Positions 9,909 through 33,648 of a stretch of DNA of 42,960 bases are shown piece by piece. Position 1 is the stretch's first letter, and each line of letters begins with the position of its first letter. Under the pieces are notes generated by a model, which worked only from the letters and a program-made list of their open reading frames with translations, ran no database searches and was not told the DNA's origin. The stretch lies in sequence record PQ847473.1; one strand, 5' to 3'. The position numbers and the translations under genes were made by a program. This DNA comes from Escherichia phage vB_EcoP_P64441.

Positions 9909-11465
9909 TTATTGAATTAAACCTAATTGTTGACCTGCTACAGTCGGGTCAGTAACTTGCAATAATGATTGCTGCTGCTGCTGGTCCTGCTGCTGCTGTG
10001 CTTGCTCTGCTTGCTGGCGTGCTTGCAATTCCTCTTCACTATAGAAGAAGGCACTGCTCTGAATGCCGAAGCTATCCATTACACTGTCAATCAAAGCATC
10101 AACGTTAGTACGTACAGTTGCCTGTTGCAGTACTGGTACAATTAATTGAAGACTCTGTACTGCTTCAAGTAGTCTATCAGCCTGGGCTGACTTGTACAAG
10201 CTAGCGGTCCCTACCGTTACATCCAGCTCCAATGCACCGAGCTCGAACATAGGTCGAATCTCAGGATACTTATTAAGAACGTACAGGTACGCGAGTTTAC
10301 GAAGCCAATTATCTGCAAGTGTAGAGTAAGCGTCACCTAAGGCTGATTGTGCTTCTTGAGCATTCTGACGAATCTCATAAGCAGTTACACGCTCACCTTG
10401 ACGAGTGTTACCGCCGTACATGAATGCACGGGATAGCTTCTGCTCGATAGTGCTAATCTCAGCTTGTAGCGCGGCAATCTTCTGAGCGTTCCCACCTTCA
10501 TGGGACCATACTCCAGAACTGGTACCTGCGGGCTGGTTAGTCTGTACGAACTCACCTGTCTCTGCATCTTGCAATGCATCAATATCTACACCAGAAGCTG
10601 AGCTAACCATGTTAACTACTCTCGCTGCTTCCACCTCATACAAGGTTAAGCTACGGGAAAGTACAGATAAACGGGCGAAGTCACCAGCGTAATCCTCAAC
10701 GAGGCTACGACCGTAGTGCTCACCATTAACAAGGTTCCATGCCAGTACTACGTACGGACATTGGTCCTCAGGATAATAGCTAGGCTCACCTACAGGGTAG
10801 GTTTCGACTTCCTGATATACTTTATATACATAACCAAGCTCACGACGCTCACGCATAATTCCAGTAAATAAGCGCACATCATCGTACATCTCCTTATTGG
10901 AGAAGTGAGCTCGTCGGATATCATCTGGGATATCCGCAACGCTGATACGTTCACGTAGGATTGTAGTCAGTACGTTACCGGCTCCATCACGCTTAGTAGC
11001 ATAATCGCGCACGCTGTATACGTAAGAACGTTCAGTTTCGGAGTCGAAGTATTCCAGAGCATTGCCAGTTACGAGTAATAGTTTAATAGCGCGTAGCTTT
11101 GCAGCATACCCACCTTTAGTGAATACGATACTAGATGCTACAGCTTCCATTTCAGCCTGAGCTGAGAAGACCGGACCTTGCAGACCTAATTGGTCAACAA
11201 TCCCTGTAAGGTCAGCGGATGCCGCGAATCTAAAGAATGGACTGCCTTGTGGAAACAATGCATCTACAATCTTAGTAGCTGCTGAGTTGACAAGCAGCGC
11301 ACCAGTACTCTGATAGTCATGCACCAGAGAAGTACGCTTACCGTCACTCGCTGTAATATCCTTAGTGAATACGTTAGGAAGTGTCCAGCGAGCGTATTGC
11401 TCAGCAGCGTCTAGTGTAGATGCATCCTTCAATCGAACGAATAAATCTGCTAAACGCTTTTGCAT
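9909..11465 (-). CDS. Portal (head-to-tail connector) protein (gp8-like)
   Basis: 518 aa. 'GERVTAYEIRQNAQEAQSALGDAYSTLADNWL' parallels T7 gp8 'GERVTAEEIRYVASELEDTLGGVYSILSQEL'. Gln-rich C-terminus. Confidence 0.85.
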   Translation of the reverse strand: MQKRLADLFVRLKDASTLDAAEQYARWTLPNVFTKDITASDGKRTSLVHDYQSTGALLVNSAATKIVDALFPQGSPFFRFAASADLTGIVDQLGLQGPVFSAQAEMEAVASSIVFTKGGYAAKLRAIKLLLVTGNALEYFDSETERSYVYSVRDYATKRDGAGNVLTTILRERISVADIPDDIRRAHFSNKEMYDDVRLFTGIMRERRELGYVYKVYQEVETYPVGEPSYYPEDQCPYVVLAWNLVNGEHYGRSLVEDYAGDFARLSVLSRSLTLYEVEAARVVNMVSSASGVDIDALQDAETGEFVQTNQPAGTSSGVWSHEGGNAQKIAALQAEISTIEQKLSRAFMYGGNTRQGERVTAYEIRQNAQEAQSALGDAYSTLADNWLRKLAYLYVLNKYPEIRPMFELGALELDVTVGTASLYKSAQADRLLEAVQSLQLIVPVLQQATVRTNVDALIDSVMDSFGIQSSAFFYSEEELQARQQAEQAQQQQDQQQQQSLLQVTDPTVAGQQLGLIQ

Positions 11466-12249: not shown

Positions 12250-14700
12250 CTAACAGAAAAAGAATCTGCTACCCAGTACCTGCTTAAGGTCCAAAGAACC
12301 TTTAGCTGGTAACTCCAGCCCTTCTAAGTCTGCCCCACAAGCTACTGCCGCATCAGTAATCTCCTGAAGTACGTCATGCTCTGTGTACAGACGTAGGAAC
12401 TGTTCGCGGATAGCAGAATGCATTTCATCTACATCGCAAGCGTGAGTAGCTACCGAGTCGTGGATAGGCATAATGTCTCCTGAGAATGCAGAGATAGTCA
12501 TACCTAAGTGAGTAGCGTCTAAGCTGTGCACCCAATTAGGGGAGATGCCTGACTTAGCCTTACGCTTGTTGTTTACATTGTAGTTACGGTTGTACACCAG
12601 CAGGTGTGTCAGGTTCATGCTCTTAACAGAAACCTTAGTCTCTTCTGATTCAGTGTATCGGTTGATAACCAGCCCGCCTAACGGAGTCTTCCATTGAAGG
12701 TGGTTGGCTGCTGGTACACGATAGCACAGTGACTGTACATATTTCATCGCCTCAGTAGCTGCTGGGTTAGCGTCCTCTACTGCTGCCTTCATGCGAGTAC
12801 TCAGATATCCTGCCAGCTTGAACAGGCTGTACTCTTCCGTCCCTTCGTAACCTTCTTCCTGTGCAGACTGAAGGATGTACTCTGAGCAAGAGCGCACAGT
12901 AGCCGAGTATACGTGTGTCATGCATGGACGTTTAGCCATGCTGCGGGTAATCTCGTTCCCACGCCAGTAGTTAGCCTGCACTACGAAGTCAGGATTGTCC
13001 AGGTCCATGATGACCTTAGCATCAGTACGGCGCTTAACGTCCATGTACATATCTGCTTTCTCTTCGTTACCCTCCCAGAACAGGTTAACTAAACGACCAC
13101 CTACTGAGTCACGCAGTAACGCGGCGAAGTGCTGCTGCCCCGAGTTGGTTGCATCCATAGCCACCGGAATGCGTGATTCGTATGTTTCCGGGCTGCCCGA
13201 GTCAATAGCAGCAACGAGGTCGATGCAGGCTGCCAGAAAACACCACGGGCTGTCTGCACTCCTGAAAGCTTCTGCATTAAACGGATTTGATGCGACAAGT
13301 CGAATCTGCTCGATATTAGCATCAGTCCAAGCTGCACGCTTTTCGAATAAGGCTTTATCATAACCATAGCAGGTAGCGACGTGTACCTTGAGCCAAAACA
13401 AACCCCGCTCTCCCAGAGGCTTTGCCCGACTGAAGGAGAGCAAAGCTTTCTGCATGTCAGGACCCTGAGGGTGCAGGCTTGATTTGAAGTACAGGCGGTA
13501 GCGCCAGTCAACGCAGGTTGGGAAGTACAGTTCTTTCTCATCCTTAAACTCCTCGCAGAGTTGAACCAGTGTCACCATGGAACGCAACTTACTTACGCGA
13601 GTACGCTCTTGGATGTACCAGTTACGCATATTCATCTTCCAAGTCTGGAAGTCATCCATCTGGCGCTCGGTGTAATCCTCTTTAGGTACACCGTCCAGAT
13701 ACCACTCAGGTTTAGGGGCTGGGTAGGAACTAGGCATACCTGTCGTTACACCTTCACGACGTGCTTGGTTAAGCAGATTAAGTACTTCCTTGTTGATAAC
13801 GTAAGGCACTTCCTGCGCCTTGTTCAGCATATCCTTCAGTCCCTCTGCCTGCTTGAATGCCTCTGCTACTTCACGTTTCATTGCACGAGTAATCTGGTGA
13901 TTATGGTAAGTACCGCGCTTGCAAGTGCTGCTTAGAAGGTATCCACCTGAGAACATGTCTACATGCTTCTGCGGAGGTACAATCATTGGGGGTTTAATCT
14001 CTACGGTATCTGCGTCCAGTACTAAATCGCCTAGTACCTCAGCTAATACTTCAGACGGTGCCAAGTATTGTAGCTGGGTTGCGTCAGTGCTCTTATCCCA
14101 CGTGAACAGGCCTGTTTCCCACACAGGTTGTAGGATTAATTTACCTACTGCTACACACTGAGAAGCGGACCAAGGTTCATGCCCGTAGTGCACATTCTCT
14201 GCTGAAGCACGTAAGGTCTTCATAATATGCGACTGACTTGTAGTGTTACGTTCTTTCAAGTACTCAAATACACGATTCATATATGCGGGTGCAACTACTT
14301 CTAACTGTATGCTAAGGACCTCGGCTTGAACCTGGCGCCCTAGGCTAGCCAGCAAAGCTTGTGCAGATGTACGGCTTCCACCAGACTCTTTAAGGAAGAG
14401 GGAGTCAATGCATTTAGTGAGTGCCATTACAGCGAGAACGTCAGTAGGGACCAGACGGATAATGCTGCGGTACTTACCGCCGACGCCTGCGGTCTTCTGT
14501 GCCTTCATCTCGTCAATGCCTTGAGCAACAGTATCATAGGCTGCTGCAATCATGCGACTTACCTTAGGCAGGCTGCTTAAGTTACCTGCTGCCAGTGCCT
14601 TCTGCACCAGCTCACGCGACTTGTTCAGGCTACGAGTGCGGTAATCTTTCTCTAGCTGTAACTGGCGTTCTACTTTCTGTTCTAATGTTTCGTGTTGCAT
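12250..14700 (-). CDS. T7-like single-subunit DNA-dependent RNA polymerase
   Basis: 816 aa. 'MDATNSGQQHFAALLRDSVGGRLVNL' matches the T7 RNAP motif A region '[25 protein letters not shown]'. 'IHDSVATHA' matches motif C (HDSFG). The C-terminus 'LGSRFFFC' parallels T7 'ESDFAFA'. Confidence 0.9.
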   Translation of the reverse strand: MQHETLEQKVERQLQLEKDYRTRSLNKSRELVQKALAAGNLSSLPKVSRMIAAAYDTVAQGIDEMKAQKTAGVGGKYRSIIRLVPTDVLAVMALTKCIDSLFLKESGGSRTSAQALLASLGRQVQAEVLSIQLEVVAPAYMNRVFEYLKERNTTSQSHIMKTLRASAENVHYGHEPWSASQCVAVGKLILQPVWETGLFTWDKSTDATQLQYLAPSEVLAEVLGDLVLDADTVEIKPPMIVPPQKHVDMFSGGYLLSSTCKRGTYHNHQITRAMKREVAEAFKQAEGLKDMLNKAQEVPYVINKEVLNLLNQARREGVTTGMPSSYPAPKPEWYLDGVPKEDYTERQMDDFQTWKMNMRNWYIQERTRVSKLRSMVTLVQLCEEFKDEKELYFPTCVDWRYRLYFKSSLHPQGPDMQKALLSFSRAKPLGERGLFWLKVHVATCYGYDKALFEKRAAWTDANIEQIRLVASNPFNAEAFRSADSPWCFLAACIDLVAAIDSGSPETYESRIPVAMDATNSGQQHFAALLRDSVGGRLVNLFWEGNEEKADMYMDVKRRTDAKVIMDLDNPDFVVQANYWRGNEITRSMAKRPCMTHVYSATVRSCSEYILQSAQEEGYEGTEEYSLFKLAGYLSTRMKAAVEDANPAATEAMKYVQSLCYRVPAANHLQWKTPLGGLVINRYTESEETKVSVKSMNLTHLLVYNRNYNVNNKRKAKSGISPNWVHSLDATHLGMTISAFSGDIMPIHDSVATHACDVDEMHSAIREQFLRLYTEHDVLQEITDAAVACGADLEGLELPAKGSLDLKQVLGSRFFFC

Positions 14701-20489: not shown

Positions 20490-21071
20490 TTATTCGCTTA
20501 CATTAACCCAATCAGGACGCTCACCCTTACCGCAGTAAAAGTCAATCAGGTCTAGTAAGCGTGGATAATACTTCAGCGAACTCTTACCGTCCATTTCCGC
20601 AACCTGGCGCTTACTGAAGCTGCGCCACTCTGCTGCCGTATGCTGCTGACATCCTACACGCACTATGTCATTACAGATACTAATGAAGTACGTTTCTCCG
20701 TATATAATGACAGTCTTGGCGCCGCGCAGGTCAGCGCGGCGCAGGTTAGCGCTGCGCAGGTCAGCTTCGCGCAGGTCAGCGTCGCGCAGGTCAGTGCCGG
20801 TCAGGTCAGCGCCGCGCAGGTCAGCGCCGCGCAGGTCAACGTCGCGCAGGTCAGCGCCGCTCAGGTCAGCGCCGCGCAGGTCAGTGCCGGTCAGGTCAGC
20901 GCCGCGCAGGTTAGCGTAGCGCAGGTTAGCGCCGCGCAGGTCAACGTCGCGCAGGTTAGCACTGCTCAGGTCAGCGTCGCGCAGGTCAGCGTCGCGCAGG
21001 TTAGCGCGGCGCAGGTCAACGCTGTGCAGTCTTCCTAACTTATACTTTTCGCAGATTTCTTGATAGTTCAT
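20490..21071 (-). CDS. Pentapeptide-repeat protein 2 (about 22 A(D/N)LxG/R-type repeats plus a roughly 75-aa non-repeat C-terminal domain)
   Basis: '[56 protein letters not shown]...' is a continuous pentapeptide repeat as in Qnr/MfpA DNA mimics. Encoded by a 15-bp tandem DNA repeat. The N-terminus is paralogous to 27205..27741. Confidence 0.8.
20718..21030. repeat. 15-bp tandem repeat array (coding; pentapeptide repeats)
   Basis: Units such as 'gcgcaggtcagcgcc' / 'gcgcaggttagcgcc' repeated about 20 times. Confidence 0.9.
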
Positions 21072-21347: not shown

Positions 21348-21461
21348 ATTGAATCCTCTTAAGTCTGCAACCTCACCGCGAAGTTGCTTAACTAAGAGAC
21401 TTCCTTAGCGAGCCTTATTTCTCTTAGACTCTTATCTACATCGCACTGTATTACCTGTGCA

Positions 21462-21512
21462 CGGGAGGAACCGCTCAAGCTCGTACTATCTACCCAGAGC
21501 TTTCAGGAGGGC
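21462..21512 (-). promoter_or_regulatory. Conserved leader element copy 1 (6-bp stem AAGCTC/GAGCTT, 14-nt loop with invariant GGGTAGATA on the transcribed strand)
   Basis: Flanks 'gggaggaaccgctc' and 'caggagggca' are conserved with the copies at 28797-28850 and 30337-30391. The stem sequence differs between copies but pairing is kept. Confidence 0.55.
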
Positions 21513-21579
21513 ACCGGGATTAAAGTCCCCGGTGACTATCAATCCGCTTTGCTATCTGCATCTCGTCTTGATGAAATGA

Positions 21580-21619: not shown

Positions 21620-22807
21620 TTAAATTACCATCTCCCCTTTAAAGGACTTACCAATCTCACATTCAGCGGGAAACTTAACTTCAGACAGTATGCCAAAGTT
21701 AGGCCACAGCTGTAGCATCCTATCACGGGCTCCTTCCATAACGTTTTTGATGAGCTTACCCGCCTTACGGGCCGTCTCTTCGTCAGCACAATCTATGTAC
21801 AAACAGTCATGGACGGTAACCAGCAAACACCATTTACCCCCCATCCAATTGTCAGCTATACCAGCCCTCATAGCCATTCCGGTTGCAATAAGCATAAGCA
21901 GGGAACCTGATCCTTGAAACGGATAGTTAGCCATCTCTGTGGGCTTAAAGTCCATTACCTGCTTACCTTCGCGCCACACCGGCTTCTGACGGAAGCGGTA
22001 GCGAGTACCGCAAGGCGTAGTGAAGTAGCCCTCGCGATAGATACGCCAGCTGCCGTCATCTGCTTGTTCACGGCGTATAGGCTCCAGCAGCGCAGTACGG
22101 TTTACTTCAGCTGCAATGACATCCCTGTACTTAATAGACTCAGGGAATAGTGCCTCCTCGTTAGCTAAGAACTTCTCAGCGTCGGCTAAGCTAGCACCTG
22201 AGGCGAACGCCAGTCCTTTAGCGGATGCTCCATATTGTGCTGCGAAGCTGAAGGTTTTGATGGCTGTTCGCTTCTTCTTCCATCCTTTATGGTCCGGTGC
22301 ATCCAGGTTATGGCAAAGCTCGTAGACTTCTTCATAAGGCATACCTTCTTGGAATGCTAGACGATAGCAGTGCATATCCGTACCGGCTTCAAGCAAGCTC
22401 AGTAATTTCTTATCACCAGTGATTACACAGCCCATTACAACCTCCATAGCTGAGTAGTCACACTGTGCAATCATACCCTGCTCACCATAGCGGCTACGCA
22501 GAATCTGCTTAACCTTAGACTCACGCGGCAGCTGCTGCATGTTCGGGTTAGATGTTGACAGGCGTCCGGTAGTAGTTGAGCAGTGATTCGACCTGTGGTG
22601 AATGATGCCAGAACCATCTGCTGATGTAGGGATGACGTACGGCAGCATGCCCGTCACCTTACGCAGACTGCCATCCTTATTAGTCTCACGTACTTCATAG
22701 AAGCCGAGGTCCTTCTGGCGTGTAGTCATTTCTTTGTATGTTTTGAAGAAGTCTGAAGCTAACTTAGCCATCTTGTTCCATCCCAATAAAATAATGTGCA
22801 AGGTCAT
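21620..22807 (-). CDS. DNA polymerase (family A), polymerase-domain ORF
   Basis: 'GRLSTSNPNMQQLP' (pre-motif A), 'CDYSAMEVV' (motif A, DYSxxE), 'RTAIKTFSFAAQYGAS' (motif B), 'VTVHDCLYID' (motif C, HD). Overlaps the upstream exonuclease-domain ORF by 44 nt in the +1 frame. Confidence 0.8.
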   Translation of the reverse strand: MTLHIILLGWNKMAKLASDFFKTYKEMTTRQKDLGFYEVRETNKDGSLRKVTGMLPYVIPTSADGSGIIHHRSNHCSTTTGRLSTSNPNMQQLPRESKVKQILRSRYGEQGMIAQCDYSAMEVVMGCVITGDKKLLSLLEAGTDMHCYRLAFQEGMPYEEVYELCHNLDAPDHKGWKKKRTAIKTFSFAAQYGASAKGLAFASGASLADAEKFLANEEALFPESIKYRDVIAAEVNRTALLEPIRREQADDGSWRIYREGYFTTPCGTRYRFRQKPVWREGKQVMDFKPTEMANYPFQGSGSLLMLIATGMAMRAGIADNWMGGKWCLLVTVHDCLYIDCADEETARKAGKLIKNVMEGARDRMLQLWPNFGILSEVKFPAECEIGKSFKGEMVI

Positions 22808-23915
22808 TCATTGCGTCCATTCCTGTGCTGTACACAGGGCTACCATCCGCTAATGTTTGAGCACCTTTGTATTCACCGCGGTCTCCGTACTTCTCACGTA
22901 GAGACTGAGGTAGGTCCTGAATATTAACCAGCCCGTCGAAGCGGTACAGGCGTTCACCCCACTTCATAGCTTGCTCGTCAGTGTCTACTTTTATGAACTT
23001 AGGCATACCCTTATTACGCCCAGACTTATACACCCCGTCCTGTACTTCCTTCTTAATGTATTTAGGTGGGTCATAAGGAACCTTGCACTTGTACTTAACC
23101 GTGCCGCCATACACTAAAGCGGACATATGATAACCGCTATTCCATTTAAACTCGAAGCCCTCTGGCAATTCTGGCAAGAATGTCTGAAGTAACTCCCGCA
23201 GATTCCGAATAGCGTCCTCCTGCTCCTTCTGATTAGCTCTGGCTGTAGGCATATCAACGTACACGCCATTGAACTCACAGTATGCCAGAGCTGCGACTGC
23301 CTCCATCCTTTCCCAGACCATAGGCATCTGTCCACGTTCCGCAAATACTGCGCATTGCCCGTAGAAGCACAGCGCTGTGTTGACTATGTCACCGTTAGGC
23401 CCTGTTAAGTATTCATGTAGTAGCATAGGGTCAATGTCTGCTGTCAGAACCCCTTGCTGCCATAGTAGCTTAACGCCGTCGACTTTGTGTGACCCGCCAT
23501 ACTTAGGGGCAGTCTCATCTAGTGACGGGTAAAGATTCTGGAAGTCGCTGGCAATGTACTCGCCCTGCATAGTATCAAAGACTCGACCTCCTCGTCTAAG
23601 GAACGACTCGAACTGCTCACGGGCAAAGGTCAGCGCCCAGCTAATCTCGTACGCTGCGTTGTGCGCTACGATTAACCACGTATCATCCTGAATAGGTAGC
23701 CACTGCTTAGGGTCAGCTGCTAAGAAATCAGTTCGGGATTCATAGCGTACACTCTGCACCTCGCTGCACTGTACAGTCCCATCCGGCATAGTCCTATCGA
23801 TGCGGAAGCCTGATTCTACGATGTAGTTATCAGGGCAGTACGGAGTTGCGACCCCGCCGTAGTACGGATGATTTTGAGTTTCAATATCCCAAATTAGAAT
23901 GCTACTCATTTCCAA
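22764..23915 (-). CDS. DNA polymerase (family A), N-terminal 3'-5' exonuclease-domain ORF
   Basis: 'LIWDIETQ' is an Exo I (DxE) motif. Contiguous with the polymerase-domain ORF. The called start at 23915 is TTG; a likely ATG start lies at 23909 (MSSILIWDIET). Confidence 0.7.
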   Translation of the reverse strand: MEMSSILIWDIETQNHPYYGGVATPYCPDNYIVESGFRIDRTMPDGTVQCSEVQSVRYESRTDFLAADPKQWLPIQDDTWLIVAHNAAYEISWALTFAREQFESFLRRGGRVFDTMQGEYIASDFQNLYPSLDETAPKYGGSHKVDGVKLLWQQGVLTADIDPMLLHEYLTGPNGDIVNTALCFYGQCAVFAERGQMPMVWERMEAVAALAYCEFNGVYVDMPTARANQKEQEDAIRNLRELLQTFLPELPEGFEFKWNSGYHMSALVYGGTVKYKCKVPYDPPKYIKKEVQDGVYKSGRNKGMPKFIKVDTDEQAMKWGERLYRFDGLVNIQDLPQSLREKYGDRGEYKGAQTLADGSPVYSTGMDAMNDLAHYFIGMEQDG

Positions 23916-27204: not shown

Positions 27205-27741
27205 TTAGATACTAACCCAATCAGCGACGCGCAGGTCAGCGTCGCGCAGGTCAGTGCCGGTCAGGTCAGCGCCGCGCAGGTCAGCGCCGCGCAGGTTAGC
27301 GCCAATCAGGTTAGCGTCGCGCAGGTTAGCGCCGCTCAGGTCAGCGCCGCGCAGGTTAGCGCCGCGCAGGTTAGCGCCGTGCAGGTCAGCGCTGCGCAGG
27401 TCAGCGCCGCTCAGGTCAGCGCCGCTCAGGTCAGCGATGTTCAGGTCAGCGTAGCGCAGGTCAGCGCCGCGCAGGTCAGCGCCGCTCAGGTCAGCGCCGC
27501 GCAGGTTAGCGCCAATCAGGTTAGCGTCGCGCAGCTTAGCGTCGCTCAGGTCAGCGACGCGCAGGTCAGCGTCGCTCAGGTCAGCGTAGCGCAGGTCAGC
27601 GCCGCTCAGGTCAGCGCCGCGCAGGTCAGCGTCGAGCAGGTTAGCGCGGCGCAGGTCAGCGCCGCACAGGTCAGCGCCGCACAGGTCAGCGCCTTCCAAG
27701 GATTCCAACTTGTATTTATTACAGATATTGTCATAAGTCAT
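27205..27741 (-). CDS. Pentapeptide-repeat protein 1 (about 30 contiguous pentapeptide repeats)
   Basis: '[44 protein letters not shown]...' runs almost to the C-terminus. Likely start is the ATG at 27741 (MTYDNICNKYKL) with a GAGG ribosome-binding site; the track ORF extends to 27792. Confidence 0.8.
   Translation of the reverse strand: MTYDNICNKYKLESLEGADLCGADLCGADLRRANLLDADLRGADLSGADLRYADLSDADLRVADLSDAKLRDANLIGANLRGADLSGADLRGADLRYADLNIADLSGADLSGADLRSADLHGANLRGANLRGADLSGANLRDANLIGANLRGADLRGADLTGTDLRDADLRVADWVSI
27225..27695. repeat. 15-bp tandem repeat array (coding; pentapeptide repeats)
   Basis: About 30 units of 'gcgcaggtcagcgcc'-type repeats. Near-identical at the DNA level to the array at 20718-21030. 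Confidence 0.9.
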
Positions 27742-27751
27742 ATTAGTAACC

Positions 27752-27991
27752 TCAGTTAATTTTAATATTAAAACGTGCACAATACCCTTCAAGGGTCATC
27801 CCTACTTTAGCTGCTTTAAGACTGTAAGCTAACTTAAGAGCTTCCTTAGCGTCATGCTCACGAGCCAGCTTCTCAATCGTTACTTCATCATTACGCATCA
27901 GAATCATTTCGGGGTTCCGGTTAATCATTTCTGCATCTCCAGTTTGAAAAGGGCCATTGCAGCGTTCAGGCGAAACGCGGGTTGCATTCAT
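27752..27991 (-). CDS. Hypothetical protein (79 aa)
   Basis: ORF only. Confidence 0.3.
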   Translation of the reverse strand: MNATRVSPERCNGPFQTGDAEMINRNPEMILMRNDEVTIEKLAREHDAKEALKLAYSLKAAKVGMTLEGYCARFNIKIN

Positions 27992-28702: not shown

Positions 28703-28796
28703 CTTAACTCCTTAGTGGTTTTATTAAAGCCCTCCGCAGAAGGCTTTGTAAAACTACTTTAGTTTCTTTCATCTCAGACCCACTGAATTATCCGTG

Positions 28797-28850
28797 GACG
28801 GGAGGAACCGCTCGAGCCTGTTCTATCTACCCTAGGCTCTCAGAAGGGCA
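28797..28850 (-). promoter_or_regulatory. Conserved leader element copy 2 (stem GAGCCT/AGGCTC, loop with GGGTAGATA)
   Basis: Plus strand 'gacgggaggaaccgctcGAGCCTgttctatctaccctAGGCTCtcagaagggca'. Confidence 0.55.
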
Positions 28851-28890
28851 ATCACTTAGCGTTGTTGATTAACGTCCTGCTATGAATCCA

Positions 28891-28918
28891 ACTATACTCC
28901 TATTTTATTTTGTGTCAA
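28891..28918 (-). promoter_or_regulatory. Sigma70-like promoter P2 (TTGACA-16 nt-TATAGT) reading the minus strand
   Basis: Minus strand 'gtgTTGACAcaaaataaaataggagTATAGTtgg'. Confidence 0.5.
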
Positions 28919-28921
28919 CAC

Positions 28922-29587
28922 TTATTTTGAAATTCTTTCTGAAATATACACAAATCCCTTAGGAGTAAACTGCGCAGAGATGCGTGCAACCTTTAATCTG
29001 TCAAAAGTAACCTTATGCTCCCCACGTTTAGCCTTTAGCCAGCCTGCACTGAATGTCCACGTACCATTCAATTTATACATATGCTTATTCTCTACCAGCC
29101 AACTTCTTACTTCAGCTTCAGTGTAAGATAAGAACTTACACATCTCACGTAAAGTCATAAGACCTGTAGTATCTACATAGTTACCTACGAACTCAACCTT
29201 AGGCGCTGCTTCTTCTACCTTCTCTTGGAGCTTCAAGTTCTCTTCTGCGTAGTTCTGGAGAAGTCCCAGCAACTGCTTAGGGTCATGCAAGTTAATAGTA
29301 GGCTGACGTTGCTTACGCTCCAGCTCTTCCCAACGGTCAATGATACGGGCGCGCAGTTCTACATTGTAGCCAGAGATAACAAGCAATGTATCACGTTTAG
29401 TTAAATGCCACTCGCGCTGTTGCTGATTATTATATCCGGCGTAAGTTACTGATTTACTTGATTGGCTCAAAACTGAGCCAATGCTTTCAATGTCCCTAAG
29501 TACGTTCTTATGCAACTTACCAGTCAGCTCAGCAATCTCGCGGCTAGTCATGGTCTGTACATCAGTAGTAGTAGTTAAATCAAACAT
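28922..29587 (-). CDS. Rha-family phage regulatory protein-like
   Basis: N-terminal 'QTMTSREIAELTGKLHKNVLRDIESI' resembles the Rha-domain signature (MSSREIAELTGK.H..VLRDI). Confidence 0.6.
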   Translation of the reverse strand: MFDLTTTTDVQTMTSREIAELTGKLHKNVLRDIESIGSVLSQSSKSVTYAGYNNQQQREWHLTKRDTLLVISGYNVELRARIIDRWEELERKQRQPTINLHDPKQLLGLLQNYAEENLKLQEKVEEAAPKVEFVGNYVDTTGLMTLREMCKFLSYTEAEVRSWLVENKHMYKLNGTWTFSAGWLKAKRGEHKVTFDRLKVARISAQFTPKGFVYISERISK

Positions 29588-30272: not shown

Positions 30273-30336
30273 CTTAGCGAAGCTCTTGTCTCTTCAATCT
30301 AGTGAGCTTCTCATCTATTCCCTCTGTATAATCCGA

Positions 30337-30391
30337 GGACGCTAGGTAACGCTCAGAACCTGTTTATCTACCCCGGTTCTTCAGAAGGGCA
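30337..30391 (-). promoter_or_regulatory. Conserved leader element copy 3 (stem AGAACC/GGTTCT, loop with GGGTAGATA)
   Basis: Plus strand 'ggacgctaggtaacgctcAGAACCtgtttatctaccccGGTTCTtcagaagggca'. Confidence 0.55.
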
Positions 30392-30430
30392 ACCAGTTAT
30401 CGTATCTGGCTAACGTCTTGCTATGTACTG

Positions 30431-30459
30431 ACTATACTTCTACAAAACAGGTAAGTCAA
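30431..30459 (-). promoter_or_regulatory. Sigma70-like promoter P3 (TTGACT-17 nt-TATAGT) reading the minus strand
   Basis: Minus strand 'TTGACTtacctgttttgtagaagTATAGT'. Confidence 0.5.
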
Positions 30460-30633: not shown

Positions 30634-30747
30634 ATTACCTTTAAACGCATACATCTCACACAGCTTGCACCAGTAATGAAAGTACCCGTTCATATCACCT
30701 ATATCAGCGCATACCTCTACCATCTTCTCTAAATACTCTCGAGTCAT
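30634..30747 (-). CDS. Micro-ORF (38 aa), paralogue of 30466..30612
   Basis: Hand translation 'MTREYLEKMVEVCADIGDMNGYFHYWCKLCEMYAFKGN'. Its 5' leader ('caacacatagtaataggagataattgagac') is near-identical to the leader of the 244-aa gene at 31539-31572. Confidence 0.4.
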
Positions 30748-30803
30748 GTCTCAATTATCTCCTATTACTATGTGTTGTGCGGAGGCTCTCGCCGAACGCA
30801 CCC

Positions 30804-31538
30804 TTACCTACGCTGTTGCTGCATCCATTCGTACAACTCACCCTGCGACCACTTAACCTGACGCGCTGTAGCGCCCTTAGTAGTCTCTTTAATCTCTTCA
30901 TACTCTACTACAGCATCCTTACTATGTATATACGTAGTACTATCATTACTTAGTATACTGCGCTCATACTCCTTCTTACTAAGCTCCGGCTTAGACTCAT
31001 GCTTCAGCCACTCATTATGTCTAGCATCAAGCATTGCATCTATCTCTAGTGCTAAAGCATCCAACGGCTCAGCGTCTATCCAATCCCTGTCCTCGCACCA
31101 CGTAGGGTTAAGATAGAGGCTATCATCCATATACCGCTTATCCTTCCTAGCGTTGTACTGCTTGTAATGCGCTGTAGCCTCATTAACTGCGCTCAGTACA
31201 GTACCAGCACGCTGCATAGTCTTAAGCCCTGCATAGCCTCTACTACGTCCTTCTAAGTAATCGTTCATGAGATTGTAATGCTTCAACTGGAAGTCATCAC
31301 TGTATGCCCAAGCCAGCACTACATCCTGCATCTTCAACGTAGCATCAGCTACAGCTATTATATTACGCCTAGCTACAGGCTTCTTATCGCTCCTAGCAGG
31401 CTTACTAGTACCTAAAGCAGCGTATGCCTCATCTTTAGTTAAGTACCAGTCATCACCTACTACATACACATTACAGCGCTTCCCATCTATAGTCTTCTTA
31501 CTGCGCTTCATCAATGTACCCGTCTCTTGCTTAGTCAT
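30804..31538 (-). CDS. Hypothetical early protein (244 aa); first gene after the putative left end
   Basis: ORF with an AGGGGA ribosome-binding site. No recognisable motif. Confidence 0.5.
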   Translation of the reverse strand: MTKQETGTLMKRSKKTIDGKRCNVYVVGDDWYLTKDEAYAALGTSKPARSDKKPVARRNIIAVADATLKMQDVVLAWAYSDDFQLKHYNLMNDYLEGRSRGYAGLKTMQRAGTVLSAVNEATAHYKQYNARKDKRYMDDSLYLNPTWCEDRDWIDAEPLDALALEIDAMLDARHNEWLKHESKPELSKKEYERSILSNDSTTYIHSKDAVVEYEEIKETTKGATARQVKWSQGELYEWMQQQRR

Positions 31539-31539
31539 A

Positions 31540-32085
31540 ATGTCTCAATTATCCCCTACTATTATGTGTTGGTAGTGTATTGGCTGTGACTCACCTTATT
31601 GTTAAAAGCTGTACAACTAATACACCAACTAATACAACTACCCGCAGCATAACACAGCACTAACCCTGCGTCAACCATTGCACAGCCTGGAAGCAAAAGA
31701 GGTAAGCCTAACGATACACCTGCACTACCTCTGACTCTCTACTGCGGATAAAATAGGCAAGAGCAGAGAGGACAGCATCTCCCTGTGCTCCACAAAATAG
31801 GCAAGACTAACCTCTCCCGCACCCTCAACAGAGAGCGCAGAGACAGCCAGCCAAGCCAGGTCCTGCCAGAGATACGCAGAGGCACCCCCTACCCTCCCTC
31901 CAGAAGATTCCCAGAGGCCGCCCCTACGGGGGGAACAGCGCGTTGGTCGGGTGAAGGAGGCCCTCGCGTGAGTATAATAAATTCAAGGTGCCTGTTTACA
32001 CTTGCAATCCTGAGCTATGTATGCTATGCCAAAGGATTCCCCAGAGATTCCAGGGGATTCCATTAGCAATTTCTCTAGCTATTCC
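31540..32085. other. Non-coding region, candidate genome-end / terminal-repeat region (collapsed in this circular assembly)
   Basis: About 550 bp with no credible ORF, lying between the last late gene and the first early gene. Contains short direct repeats ('aaaataggcaaga' twice, 'actaatacaNc' twice) and G/C-rich tracts ('ccctccctcc', 'cccctacgggggg'). Confidence 0.35.
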
Positions 32086-33648
32086 TTAGACAATACGAAT
32101 TTCACCACCATGCGGAGAGATAGGACTAGCTAAGTACGGACTACGCACTACTACGTACCCGTTCTCATCAGAAGAGATAACTGGAGGCTTACTAACGTCG
32201 TTAGTACTGAGCGCTACAGCTGTACCACCTGCTACGTGCCCTAACCAGAACCATGTACCCAGGTTGTGGTCAATCTTCAGTGCAACATACAGGAGCTGCG
32301 TATCCGTGTACTCAATGTTAGTGCTCCATACTGCGCGGCTATCAGCACCACTGGTTTCAGTACTAAGAGCAGCGCCTACAGTGAACTGTGCCTGACTACC
32401 GTTAGACATCTTCCCGTTCACCTTCTGAGGATGGTACTTGCTGGTCTGTACTGCCTTACCTACCAGTGCATCCAGCCCTACGTTCGGGTCGTACACTGTG
32501 TAAGTCTGCTGTACAGTACTGGCTTGCTTAGCGTTAGCTAGTGCTAAGCGCTGGTTACCTGCGATGATTCCGGTAGGGAAGTGCAAATCCGAGAGGTTGT
32601 AGTTACTGCCTTCGATAATATCCCACCATACAGCACCACCACCAATGCGGTTGTTAGGCTGCATGATAACGTTCGTGTTCTCATTGAACCCACCGAACAT
32701 CTTTAGACTGCTTCCGTACACCCAGCAGTTATCCATAGTGATAGCGTTGGCACTGGTAGCGATACAACCATAAGCACCAGCGGCATTGCTCTCGATATAG
32801 CAGGAGTCGAACTTAATGTTGTAAGCGCCTTGGATAAACACACCATGTGTCTGGAAGCTCTCGATACCGCAGTTAAACAGCGTCAGTGCTTCTACAGCAG
32901 ATACGAACTTAATACCTACGTCGCATACACCTGTATGCACAGAGATAAGCGGTTGGATATTCACTTCATCACGGAACTCATAACGATGCAGGCCTACTGT
33001 GTAGCTGCCGTTGCACTGCAAGTTCTTGAACGAGCTGTAGAAGCAACGTTCTGTATAAACCAGCTGCTGCACATCCACTGCTACAATGTCCGTAACCTCA
33101 CACCCGAATACATGGTTACGCAGGCGCATACCTTGATAGAAGGACATGAGCGTAGCGTTTCGGATACAGGTACCAACAGTAAGGAACTCCTCCTGACCGC
33201 TACCAAATACTGATACAAGTCTCCCTGAGGTATTGATATAACCAGTCTCAAGGAAGATGTTAGTACTGTCTGCGGTATCTGTGCGCCCTACAATGCGAGC
33301 ACCCTGCATATCCAGAGTAGTAATGCGGCGACGAGGTGTAGTAACTTCAATAGCACTAGGGGACTCTGAGGCCAGCACATACACTTTATTAGCAATATAG
33401 TAGCTCTTCCAGCCTGTAGCTTTAACTGTACCACCACCACGGCGATAGCACTCTACAAGCGCAGCCTGAAAGGCAGCCGAGTCATCTGTAGCGTTAGGGT
33501 TGCGTGTACCATCTGGAAGGAGGGCATCACCTTTAGCCCCGAAGTCGTCTACATAAACGTCACGACCTAGTGCTTCGGATACGCTACCTCCGTTATAGCT
33601 TACCCCTTCTGAATCTACACGTACTTCAATATTAGCGACTAATGTCAT
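32086..33648 (-). CDS. Tailspike 2 / putative capsule depolymerase (pectate-lyase-like beta-helix)
   Basis: 'VYVDDFGAKGDALLPDGTRNPNATDDSAAFQAALVEC' is the N-terminal signature of pectate_lyase_3-type beta-helix tailspikes. 520 aa with no T7 gp17-like N-terminal anchor. Confidence 0.65.
   Translation of the reverse strand: MTLVANIEVRVDSEGVSYNGGSVSEALGRDVYVDDFGAKGDALLPDGTRNPNATDDSAAFQAALVECYRRGGGTVKATGWKSYYIANKVYVLASESPSAIEVTTPRRRITTLDMQGARIVGRTDTADSTNIFLETGYINTSGRLVSVFGSGQEEFLTVGTCIRNATLMSFYQGMRLRNHVFGCEVTDIVAVDVQQLVYTERCFYSSFKNLQCNGSYTVGLHRYEFRDEVNIQPLISVHTGVCDVGIKFVSAVEALTLFNCGIESFQTHGVFIQGAYNIKFDSCYIESNAAGAYGCIATSANAITMDNCWVYGSSLKMFGGFNENTNVIMQPNNRIGGGAVWWDIIEGSNYNLSDLHFPTGIIAGNQRLALANAKQASTVQQTYTVYDPNVGLDALVGKAVQTSKYHPQKVNGKMSNGSQAQFTVGAALSTETSGADSRAVWSTNIEYTDTQLLYVALKIDHNLGTWFWLGHVAGGTAVALSTNDVSKPPVISSDENGYVVVRSPYLASPISPHGGEIRIV

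Follow-up and report, generated by a model that had tools for sequence, protein, structure and literature searches.

An earlier note on the genome sequence of Escherichia phage vB_EcoP_P64441 (PQ847473.1; 42,960 nucleotides (nt), the whole stretch analysed here and called the window) singled out an open reading frame (ORF) at 28,922-29,587, took its product to be a Rha-family regulator, and treated it as out of place in a phage that appeared to be strictly lytic. What such a gene does in such a phage is the question that this locus raises. Comparison with related phages indicates that the gene fills a slot conserved throughout a clade of PAS7-like lytic podophages, and that the two modules of its protein are exchanged within this slot, each independently of the other, in the manner of cassettes.

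The ORF runs from ATG to stop over exactly this interval of the minus strand and encodes 221 amino acids (aa). The Rha-like N-terminal domain proposed earlier from the peptide TMTSREIAELTGKLHKNVLRDI (aa 12-33) is borne out by Pfam, as Phage_pRha (PF09669) matches aa 13-91 over profile positions 1-91 of 91 (E 1.3e-16) and its score of 61.3 bits clearly exceeds the gathering threshold of 29.9 bits. The accompanying domain picture was incomplete, since it left out a second domain: ANT/KilAC (PF03374; gathering threshold 25.3 bits) matches aa 122-220 over profile positions 2-106 of 108 with 50.8 bits (E 2.4e-13), making this a two-domain protein. PHROG 63 matches the full length (aa 7-218; E 2.5e-46, 159.9 bits), and its name, 'anti-repressor Ant', is an annotation that denotes a predicted function. 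Against TIGR02681, the phage_pRha subfamily of NCBIfam, the protein reaches 32 bits (E 9.9e-8) compared with a curated cut-off of 45.95, and profile matches thus place it among the Rha-domain proteins but outside this narrower subfamily. It has 596 homologues at E values of 1e-10 or below.

The closest isolated phage is Escherichia phage vB_EcoP_PAS7 (Autographiviridae, Slopekvirinae), with approximately 78% nucleotide identity over 68% of the first 25 kb, a colinear gene order and counterparts to most window ORFs. By its sequence, the window phage is a PAS7-like (Cepavirus-like, Slopekvirinae, Autographiviridae) podophage, that is, a T7-like coliphage. Homologues of the slot protein that are 50-99% identical to it occupy the corresponding position in the podophage contigs L002, L003, L005, L009, L010 and L011, the slot of PAS7 is also filled, and every sampled member of the clade carries an intact ORF there. 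In the metagenome relatives the slot gene is followed by a 108-aa gene, DUF7267, a 109-aa gene, and the genes for primase, DnaB-type helicase and DNA polymerase. No slot-protein homologue was found in the early regions of phiKDA1 and Buco, which belong to neighbouring genera. With one slot filled by homologues throughout the clade, the gene cannot be regarded as a relic that strayed in from a temperate phage.

When the protein was compared in four segments (leader, aa 1-12; Rha core; linker, aa 93-139; KilAC core), leader and linker proved to be kept across the clade, while the Rha and KilAC cores vary independently. Protein P0004 shares 76 of 80 Rha positions with the window protein and 42 of 82 KilAC positions, P0011 shares 29 of 80 and 70 of 82, and P0034 combines a Rha core with 73 of 80 identities with an unrelated C-terminus. 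Clustering of 34 proteins with the MFDL[TS] leader distinguished three types of N-module (two of them Rha variants, the third not recognised by Pfam) and two types of C-module (KilAC and a domain with consistent sub-threshold matches to GcrA-like helix-turn-helix (HTH) domains), and all six possible combinations are present and intact. The counterpart in PAS7, WMX18779.1 (OQ921331 2015-2770; 251 aa, 'putative DNA-binding protein'), matches phrog_63 (E 5e-25), as the window protein does; both of its modules are of other types (N2 and C1), only its first ~15 residues resemble the window protein, and it gave neither a Pfam Rha or ANT match nor any pairwise similarity beyond the leader. The most direct case is L009, which is 98.2% identical to the window in nucleotides from 34,300 to 29,308, shows no similarity over 29,307-28,928 (aa 94 to the last residue), and is 94.7% identical again from 28,927: the C-terminal half of the protein has been precisely replaced between near-isogenic phages. 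Both modules recombine independently and are exchanged like cassettes between closely related phages, which is the most informative feature of the gene and one that the earlier note missed.

The leader, 12-15 aa long (MFDLTTT..QTM(T/S)S; 29,552-29,587 on the minus strand of the window, 2015-2059 in PAS7, L001), is kept even across otherwise dissimilar N-module types, and is probably where recombination delimits the cassette on its 5′ side.

The window ends overlap exactly over 127 bp (1-127 and 42,834-42,960), indicating a circularly closed assembly and a complete genome of ~42.8 kb with 48% GC; a 1256-aa gp16-like internal virion protein spans the ends, and all long ORFs lie on the minus strand. 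Scans for lifestyle genes (Pfam on ORFs unexplained by the PAS7 annotation, PHROG on early-region ORFs, and NCBIfam on three unexplained ORFs) yielded HNH nucleases, a primase, a lysozyme, an endosialidase tail fibre, a beta-helix tailspike and two pentapeptide-repeat proteins. The same scans gave no integrase, no excisionase and no S24/XRE repressor, nor any CI/Cro/Arc/Mnt-like or S24 protein, and a transfer RNA scan found no transfer RNAs. With these negatives on a complete genome, and with PAS7 known from its description as lytic and as the type podophage of a proposed genus, Cepavirus (PMC11522302), a strictly lytic lifestyle is well supported. The earlier statements that the phage has no integrase or repressor and is apparently strictly lytic therefore hold for the closed genome, whose layout is that of Autographiviridae/Slopekvirinae.

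Outside the clade, the window Rha module is 76-83% identical to those of the E. coli proteins P0035, P0052 and P0082, which have other C-termini. P0082, the one E. coli protein whose surroundings were checked, comes from a lambdoid prophage, with cI/cro on one side of its gene and a DnaB helicase gene on the other; this gene shares 74% DNA identity with the window gene over 224 nt in a short-word blastn comparison. A blastn search in 'distant' mode against 5,426 complete E. coli genomes gave no match to the gene, and its likeness to prophage genes is detectable solely at the protein level or by short-word blastn. The best whole-protein matches among deposited phages are 34-51% identical and come mostly from temperate phages, one example lying in the nin region of Lederbergvirus phiKp_30. 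Related genes annotated as 'antirepressor' or 'transcriptional regulator' are also found in Acinetobacter phages of ~45 kb, which we take to be virulent Obolenskvirus myophages. An Ant-type gene is likewise carried by a virulent Jerseyvirus (PMC9409062). An antirepressor-like gene in a lytic phage is thus not unusual, and these examples, together with the clade-wide slot, make the premise that the window gene is out of place a weak one.

The gene is flanked by tailspike and lysis genes on one side and by primase and helicase genes on the other, and the early location given in the earlier note agrees with a slot that is early throughout the clade and downstream of a host-type sigma70 promoter. 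Its start codon and the stop codon of the 83-aa ORF upstream have one base in common (TAATG), an arrangement suggestive of translational coupling, and GGGGA is found 8 nt upstream of the start codon. It is predicted to be the last gene of a transcription unit headed by the sigma70-type promoter at 30,459-30,431, and the next such promoter is near-consensus and starts 4 nt past its stop codon. The phage RNA polymerase gene lies far downstream (12,250-14,700), in the late position typical of Slopekvirinae, so that transcription by the host RNA polymerase would be the expected early mode for the slot gene.

An AlphaFold2 model built on 62 homologues has a mean predicted local distance difference test (pLDDT) score of 79.8 and a predicted template modelling (pTM) score of 0.41, indicating that the individual domains are modelled with confidence and that their mutual orientation is not. 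The N-module (aa 15-94) is predicted to be alpha-alpha-beta-beta-alpha-alpha, the middle a long helix (aa 103-139), and the C-module (aa 146-219) alpha-alpha-beta-beta-alpha-beta-beta-alpha. The model thus suggests two winged-helix (MerR-like) modules, both resembling DNA-binding winged helices, linked by a long helix that is a candidate dimerisation coiled coil. This is a resemblance in fold to the MerR-family and excisionase winged-helix domains rather than membership of either family: no MerR or HTH_17 profile reached its threshold. Sub-threshold HTH_17, MerR and MADS1-HTH matches fall in the KilAC region, and in relatives, too, such matches stay below threshold. A Foldseek search of the model against PDB returned nothing below an E value of 0.1, which we attribute to the pTM of the two-domain model. 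The only matches in a PDB sequence search, to RTF1, are spurious.

Experimental data for this type of architecture stem only from temperate Firmicute phages. In AriS-like proteins an N-terminal AntA/B, Bro-N or pRha domain, drawn from an interchangeable set, is joined to an ANT/KilAC domain (PF03374) at the C-terminus, and the functions of the modules can be separated (Azulay et al. 2022, PMC9043618). In AriS itself (LMRG_02920), from Listeria phage phi10403S, the N domain regulates phage genes, and KilAC by itself suffices to block the SOS response, with RecA as the probable point of action (PMC9043618). By Pfam, the window protein has this architecture; however, AriS-like proteins are encoded by temperate phages or prophages, whereas the scans of the complete window genome gave no integrase or repressor and PAS7 is lytic. 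AriS, moreover, comes from a temperate Firmicute prophage and has an AntA/B domain, whereas the window protein comes from a lytic enterobacterial podophage and has a Rha domain. Gp07 of Staphylococcus phage Phi11 can be likened to the window protein by architecture, an N-terminal viral regulator domain followed by a KilA-type C domain (Ant superfamily), but its N domain is Bro-N rather than Rha and its phage is temperate. The KilA-type domain of Gp07 alone keeps growth inhibition, and over-expression of the full protein causes filamentation in E. coli (PMC5944126). The founders of PF09669, phi80 Rha and P22 Orf201, share the Rha-family N-terminal domain and are known only for inhibiting phage growth in hosts deficient in integration host factor (PMC4936722); both come from temperate lambdoid phages, and P22 rha (orf201) belongs to a late operon, in contrast to the window gene, which is early and behind a sigma70 promoter. 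P22 Ant, P1 Ant1/KilA (KilA being the namesake of KilAC) and the Gifsy antirepressors belong to the same 'antirepressor' annotation lineage but are defined by binding of a cognate repressor or by host killing inside an immunity circuit, and the window genome, as scanned, has no such circuit. The protein is thus of an ordinary phage gene type, and departs from its characterised members in being encoded by a lytic genome without an immunity circuit. Literature searches, which for 'Rha' mostly returned papers on rhamnose, turned up no experimental study of a Rha/KilAC protein from a virulent phage.

Our tentative preference is for an early regulator of host takeover in a strictly lytic PAS7-like podophage, a dimeric, DNA-binding protein with two separable modules, which we consider quite possible. 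The gene would be transcribed by the host RNA polymerase within minutes of the start of infection, the long helix would dimerise the protein, and the Rha module would bind DNA at specific sites; the 76-83% identity that this module shares with Rha domains of E. coli proteins, including one from a prophage, points to targets of host or prophage type. By analogy, the KilAC module may serve as a second, separable effector directed against a process of the host, for example SOS induction or cell division. Overall, host transcription would be reprogrammed and the stress or prophage response silenced, leaving the lytic cycle undisturbed. The role we infer here coincides with the host interference or transcription modulation suggested in the earlier note.

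Alternatively, the protein may act on its own phage, binding phage DNA to shut off or retune early transcription by the host RNA polymerase as a Cro-like early-to-middle switch, a possibility that we consider unlikely. Its gene closes the first early unit directly ahead of the next strong sigma70 promoter, as might suit such a switch, and HK022 Roi, which binds DNA within its own gene, offers a parallel. So does the N domain of AriS, which regulates genes of its own phage (PMC9043618). However, a search at the three early promoters for an operator motif that co-varies with N-module type found none, and the three promoter/leader regions are conserved whatever the N-module type. Free swapping of the DNA-binding module would be unexpected in a regulator of conserved phage sites, and the genera represented by phiKDA1 and Buco do without the gene.

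A classical antirepressor, which would bind and inactivate the CI-type repressors of resident prophages, causing induction or the loss of repressor-dependent interference and thereby helping the phage in lysogenic hosts, is rather improbable. The window genome has no cognate repressor or immI-type control in the scans, both modules in the model resemble DNA-binding winged helices, and we know of no Rha/KilAC protein that has been shown to bind a repressor. The idea is nonetheless consistent with the annotation of the PHROG 63/130 families as 'anti-repressor Ant', with the finding that the nearest Rha modules beyond the clade are those of E. coli lambdoid and P22-like prophages, and with rapid module swapping, which fits an arms race over specificity. 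Antirepressors that act in trans exist (PMC3121763), and the same idea has been proposed for the Ant-like gene of the virulent Jerseyvirus (PMC9409062).

A further, more speculative reading, which we hold to be improbable, is that the slot is itself an arms-race module, in which interchangeable DNA-binding heads from E. coli prophages manipulate strain-specific resident prophages or the SOS response, maybe together with the flanking RNA leaders described below. If true, this would constitute a new route of cross-talk between lytic and temperate phages.

That the gene is a functionless relic or a selfish 'moron' from temperate phages, kept by chance, is very improbable: the family is abundant in temperate phages and the GC content of the gene is slightly low (42% compared with 48% for the genome), though like that of neighbouring early genes, yet every sampled clade member has an intact ORF in this slot, at 50-99% identity, none of the six module combinations is disrupted, and the gene start overlaps the stop codon of the upstream ORF. 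An origin-binding or replication-associated protein is equally hard to credit, as the gene is separated from the primase and helicase genes of the window by ~2 kb with several genes, is absent from sister genera with the same types of replication gene (primase, helicase, DNA polymerase), and would serve a T7-like replication for which we know of no required initiator, even though in E. coli prophage L008 the closest Rha-module protein is encoded between cro and a 372-aa gene that is followed by a DnaB helicase gene.

In the screening of phages for therapy, 'Rha' and 'antirepressor' annotations routinely serve as flags of a temperate lifestyle. The fixation of a Rha/KilAC gene in the early region of a lytic Autographiviridae clade suggests that such an annotation alone should not disqualify a phage. 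The added value of the locus is modest and lies in how cleanly modules are shuffled, combinatorially, at one fixed slot of this clade; with all six natural combinations occurring in near-isogenic genomes, it amounts to a ready-made experiment on the separate roles of Rha and KilAC.

Table 1. Features of the slot gene and its surroundings; positions are those of the window unless PAS7 is named.
Feature	Position	Strand	Basis or remark
Coding sequence, 221 aa; early protein, Rha (winged HTH) - long helix - KilAC/ANT	28922..29587	-	ORF, Pfam PF09669/PF03374, PHROG 63, 596 homologues at E<=1e-10
N-terminal leader, aa 1-12 (MFDLTTTTDVQT)	29552..29587	-	Shared by every module variant in the clade, PAS7 included
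Phage_pRha domain, aa 13-91, type N0	29315..29551	-	Pfam; modelled as alpha-alpha-beta-beta-alpha-alpha winged helix
Linker, aa 93-139, with predicted long helix aa 103-139	29171..29311	-	Highly conserved in the clade
ANT/KilAC domain, aa 122-220, type C0	28928..29224	-	Pfam; modelled as alpha-alpha-beta-beta-alpha-beta-beta-alpha
Cassette exchanged in near-identical relative L009	28928..29307	-	Nucleotide comparison
Upstream ORF, 83 aa	29587..29838	-	Homologous to PAS7 1385-1624
Sigma70-type promoter, TTGACT-17-TATAGT	30431..30459	-	Nearest upstream promoter of the unit that the gene closes
Next sigma70-type promoter, TTGACA-16-TATAGT	28891..28918	-	Near-consensus; starts 4 nt past the stop codon of the gene
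RNA leader, copy 1	30305..30428	-	At +1 of promoter 30431..30459
RNA leader, copy 2	28763..28887	-	Directly downstream of the gene, abutting its stop-codon side
RNA leader, third copy	21426..21549	-	At the transcription start of a sigma70-type promoter
RNA leader copies of PAS7 (L001)	1070-1193, 2982-3106, 10377-10501		Covariance model

While tracing the swap boundaries we came upon a conserved RNA element of ~125 nt, present on the coding strand in three window copies at the starts of sigma70-type promoter transcripts (Table 1). Every window copy and most copies in relatives begin at +1 of a TTGAC-N17-TATAGT promoter, copy 1 of PAS7 having no obvious promoter. A covariance model finds one to three copies per locus in the PAS7-like relatives and three in the complete PAS7 genome. 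Across 19 hits (18 distinct, two weak ones included), 96.9% of cells form standard pairs, compared with 34-42% in slid controls, and compensatory changes occur at 17 of 24 pairs distributed over five helices. The single-sequence fold of the downstream intergenic region is not significant (z = -1.0), and the structure is evident solely via covariation. Rfam gives no match to the region or to the repeated leader, whether at the gathering threshold or at E<=10. In phiKDA1 there is likely a divergent copy (2088-2209, 20.7 bits), and scans with the leader pattern identified two real IMG/VR contigs; nine matches in Joint Genome Institute (JGI) metagenomes were all due to chance. The position at the 5′ end of each unit transcribed by the host RNA polymerase recalls that of the put antiterminator RNAs of HK022. 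A put-like antiterminator, a leader that stabilises messenger RNA and a protein sponge are all candidate roles, between which we see no preference. This covarying leader next to the gene is probably a more original lead than the gene itself.

Several other features of the genome were encountered. The first large early ORF (30,804-31,538, minus strand; 244 aa) lacks a counterpart in PAS7, is matched by nothing in Pfam, PHROG or NCBIfam, and is present in the near-identical L009. Two early start codons are each directly preceded by one copy of a 32-nt direct repeat (30,746-30,777 and 31,540-31,571; 91% identical), a ribosome-binding region that has been duplicated. The 1082-aa tail fibre (37,197-40,445, minus strand) combines a T7-tail-fibre N-terminus with a complete endosialidase (End_beta_propel, E 1e-197; End_tail_spike; Peptidase_S74 chaperone), from which the host is probably K1-capsulated E. 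coli, and a second tailspike, a 520-aa beta-helix protein (32,086-33,648, minus strand), suggests dual receptor specificity. DNA polymerase is split into overlapping ORFs of 383 aa (22,764-23,915, minus strand) and 395 aa (21,620-22,807, minus strand), as it is in PAS7 and the metagenome relatives, and in relatives only the second part matches DNA_pol_A. The two pentapeptide-repeat proteins (27,205-27,792 and 20,490-21,071, both minus strand) could be DNA mimics or anti-defence proteins. The PAS7 counterpart of the second is annotated on the opposite strand as 'modular polyketide synthase', probably a mis-annotation, and the first consists of ~29 tandem 15-nt units, is richer in GC than the genome (62% compared with 48%), and lies opposite an ORF of the same length on the other strand.
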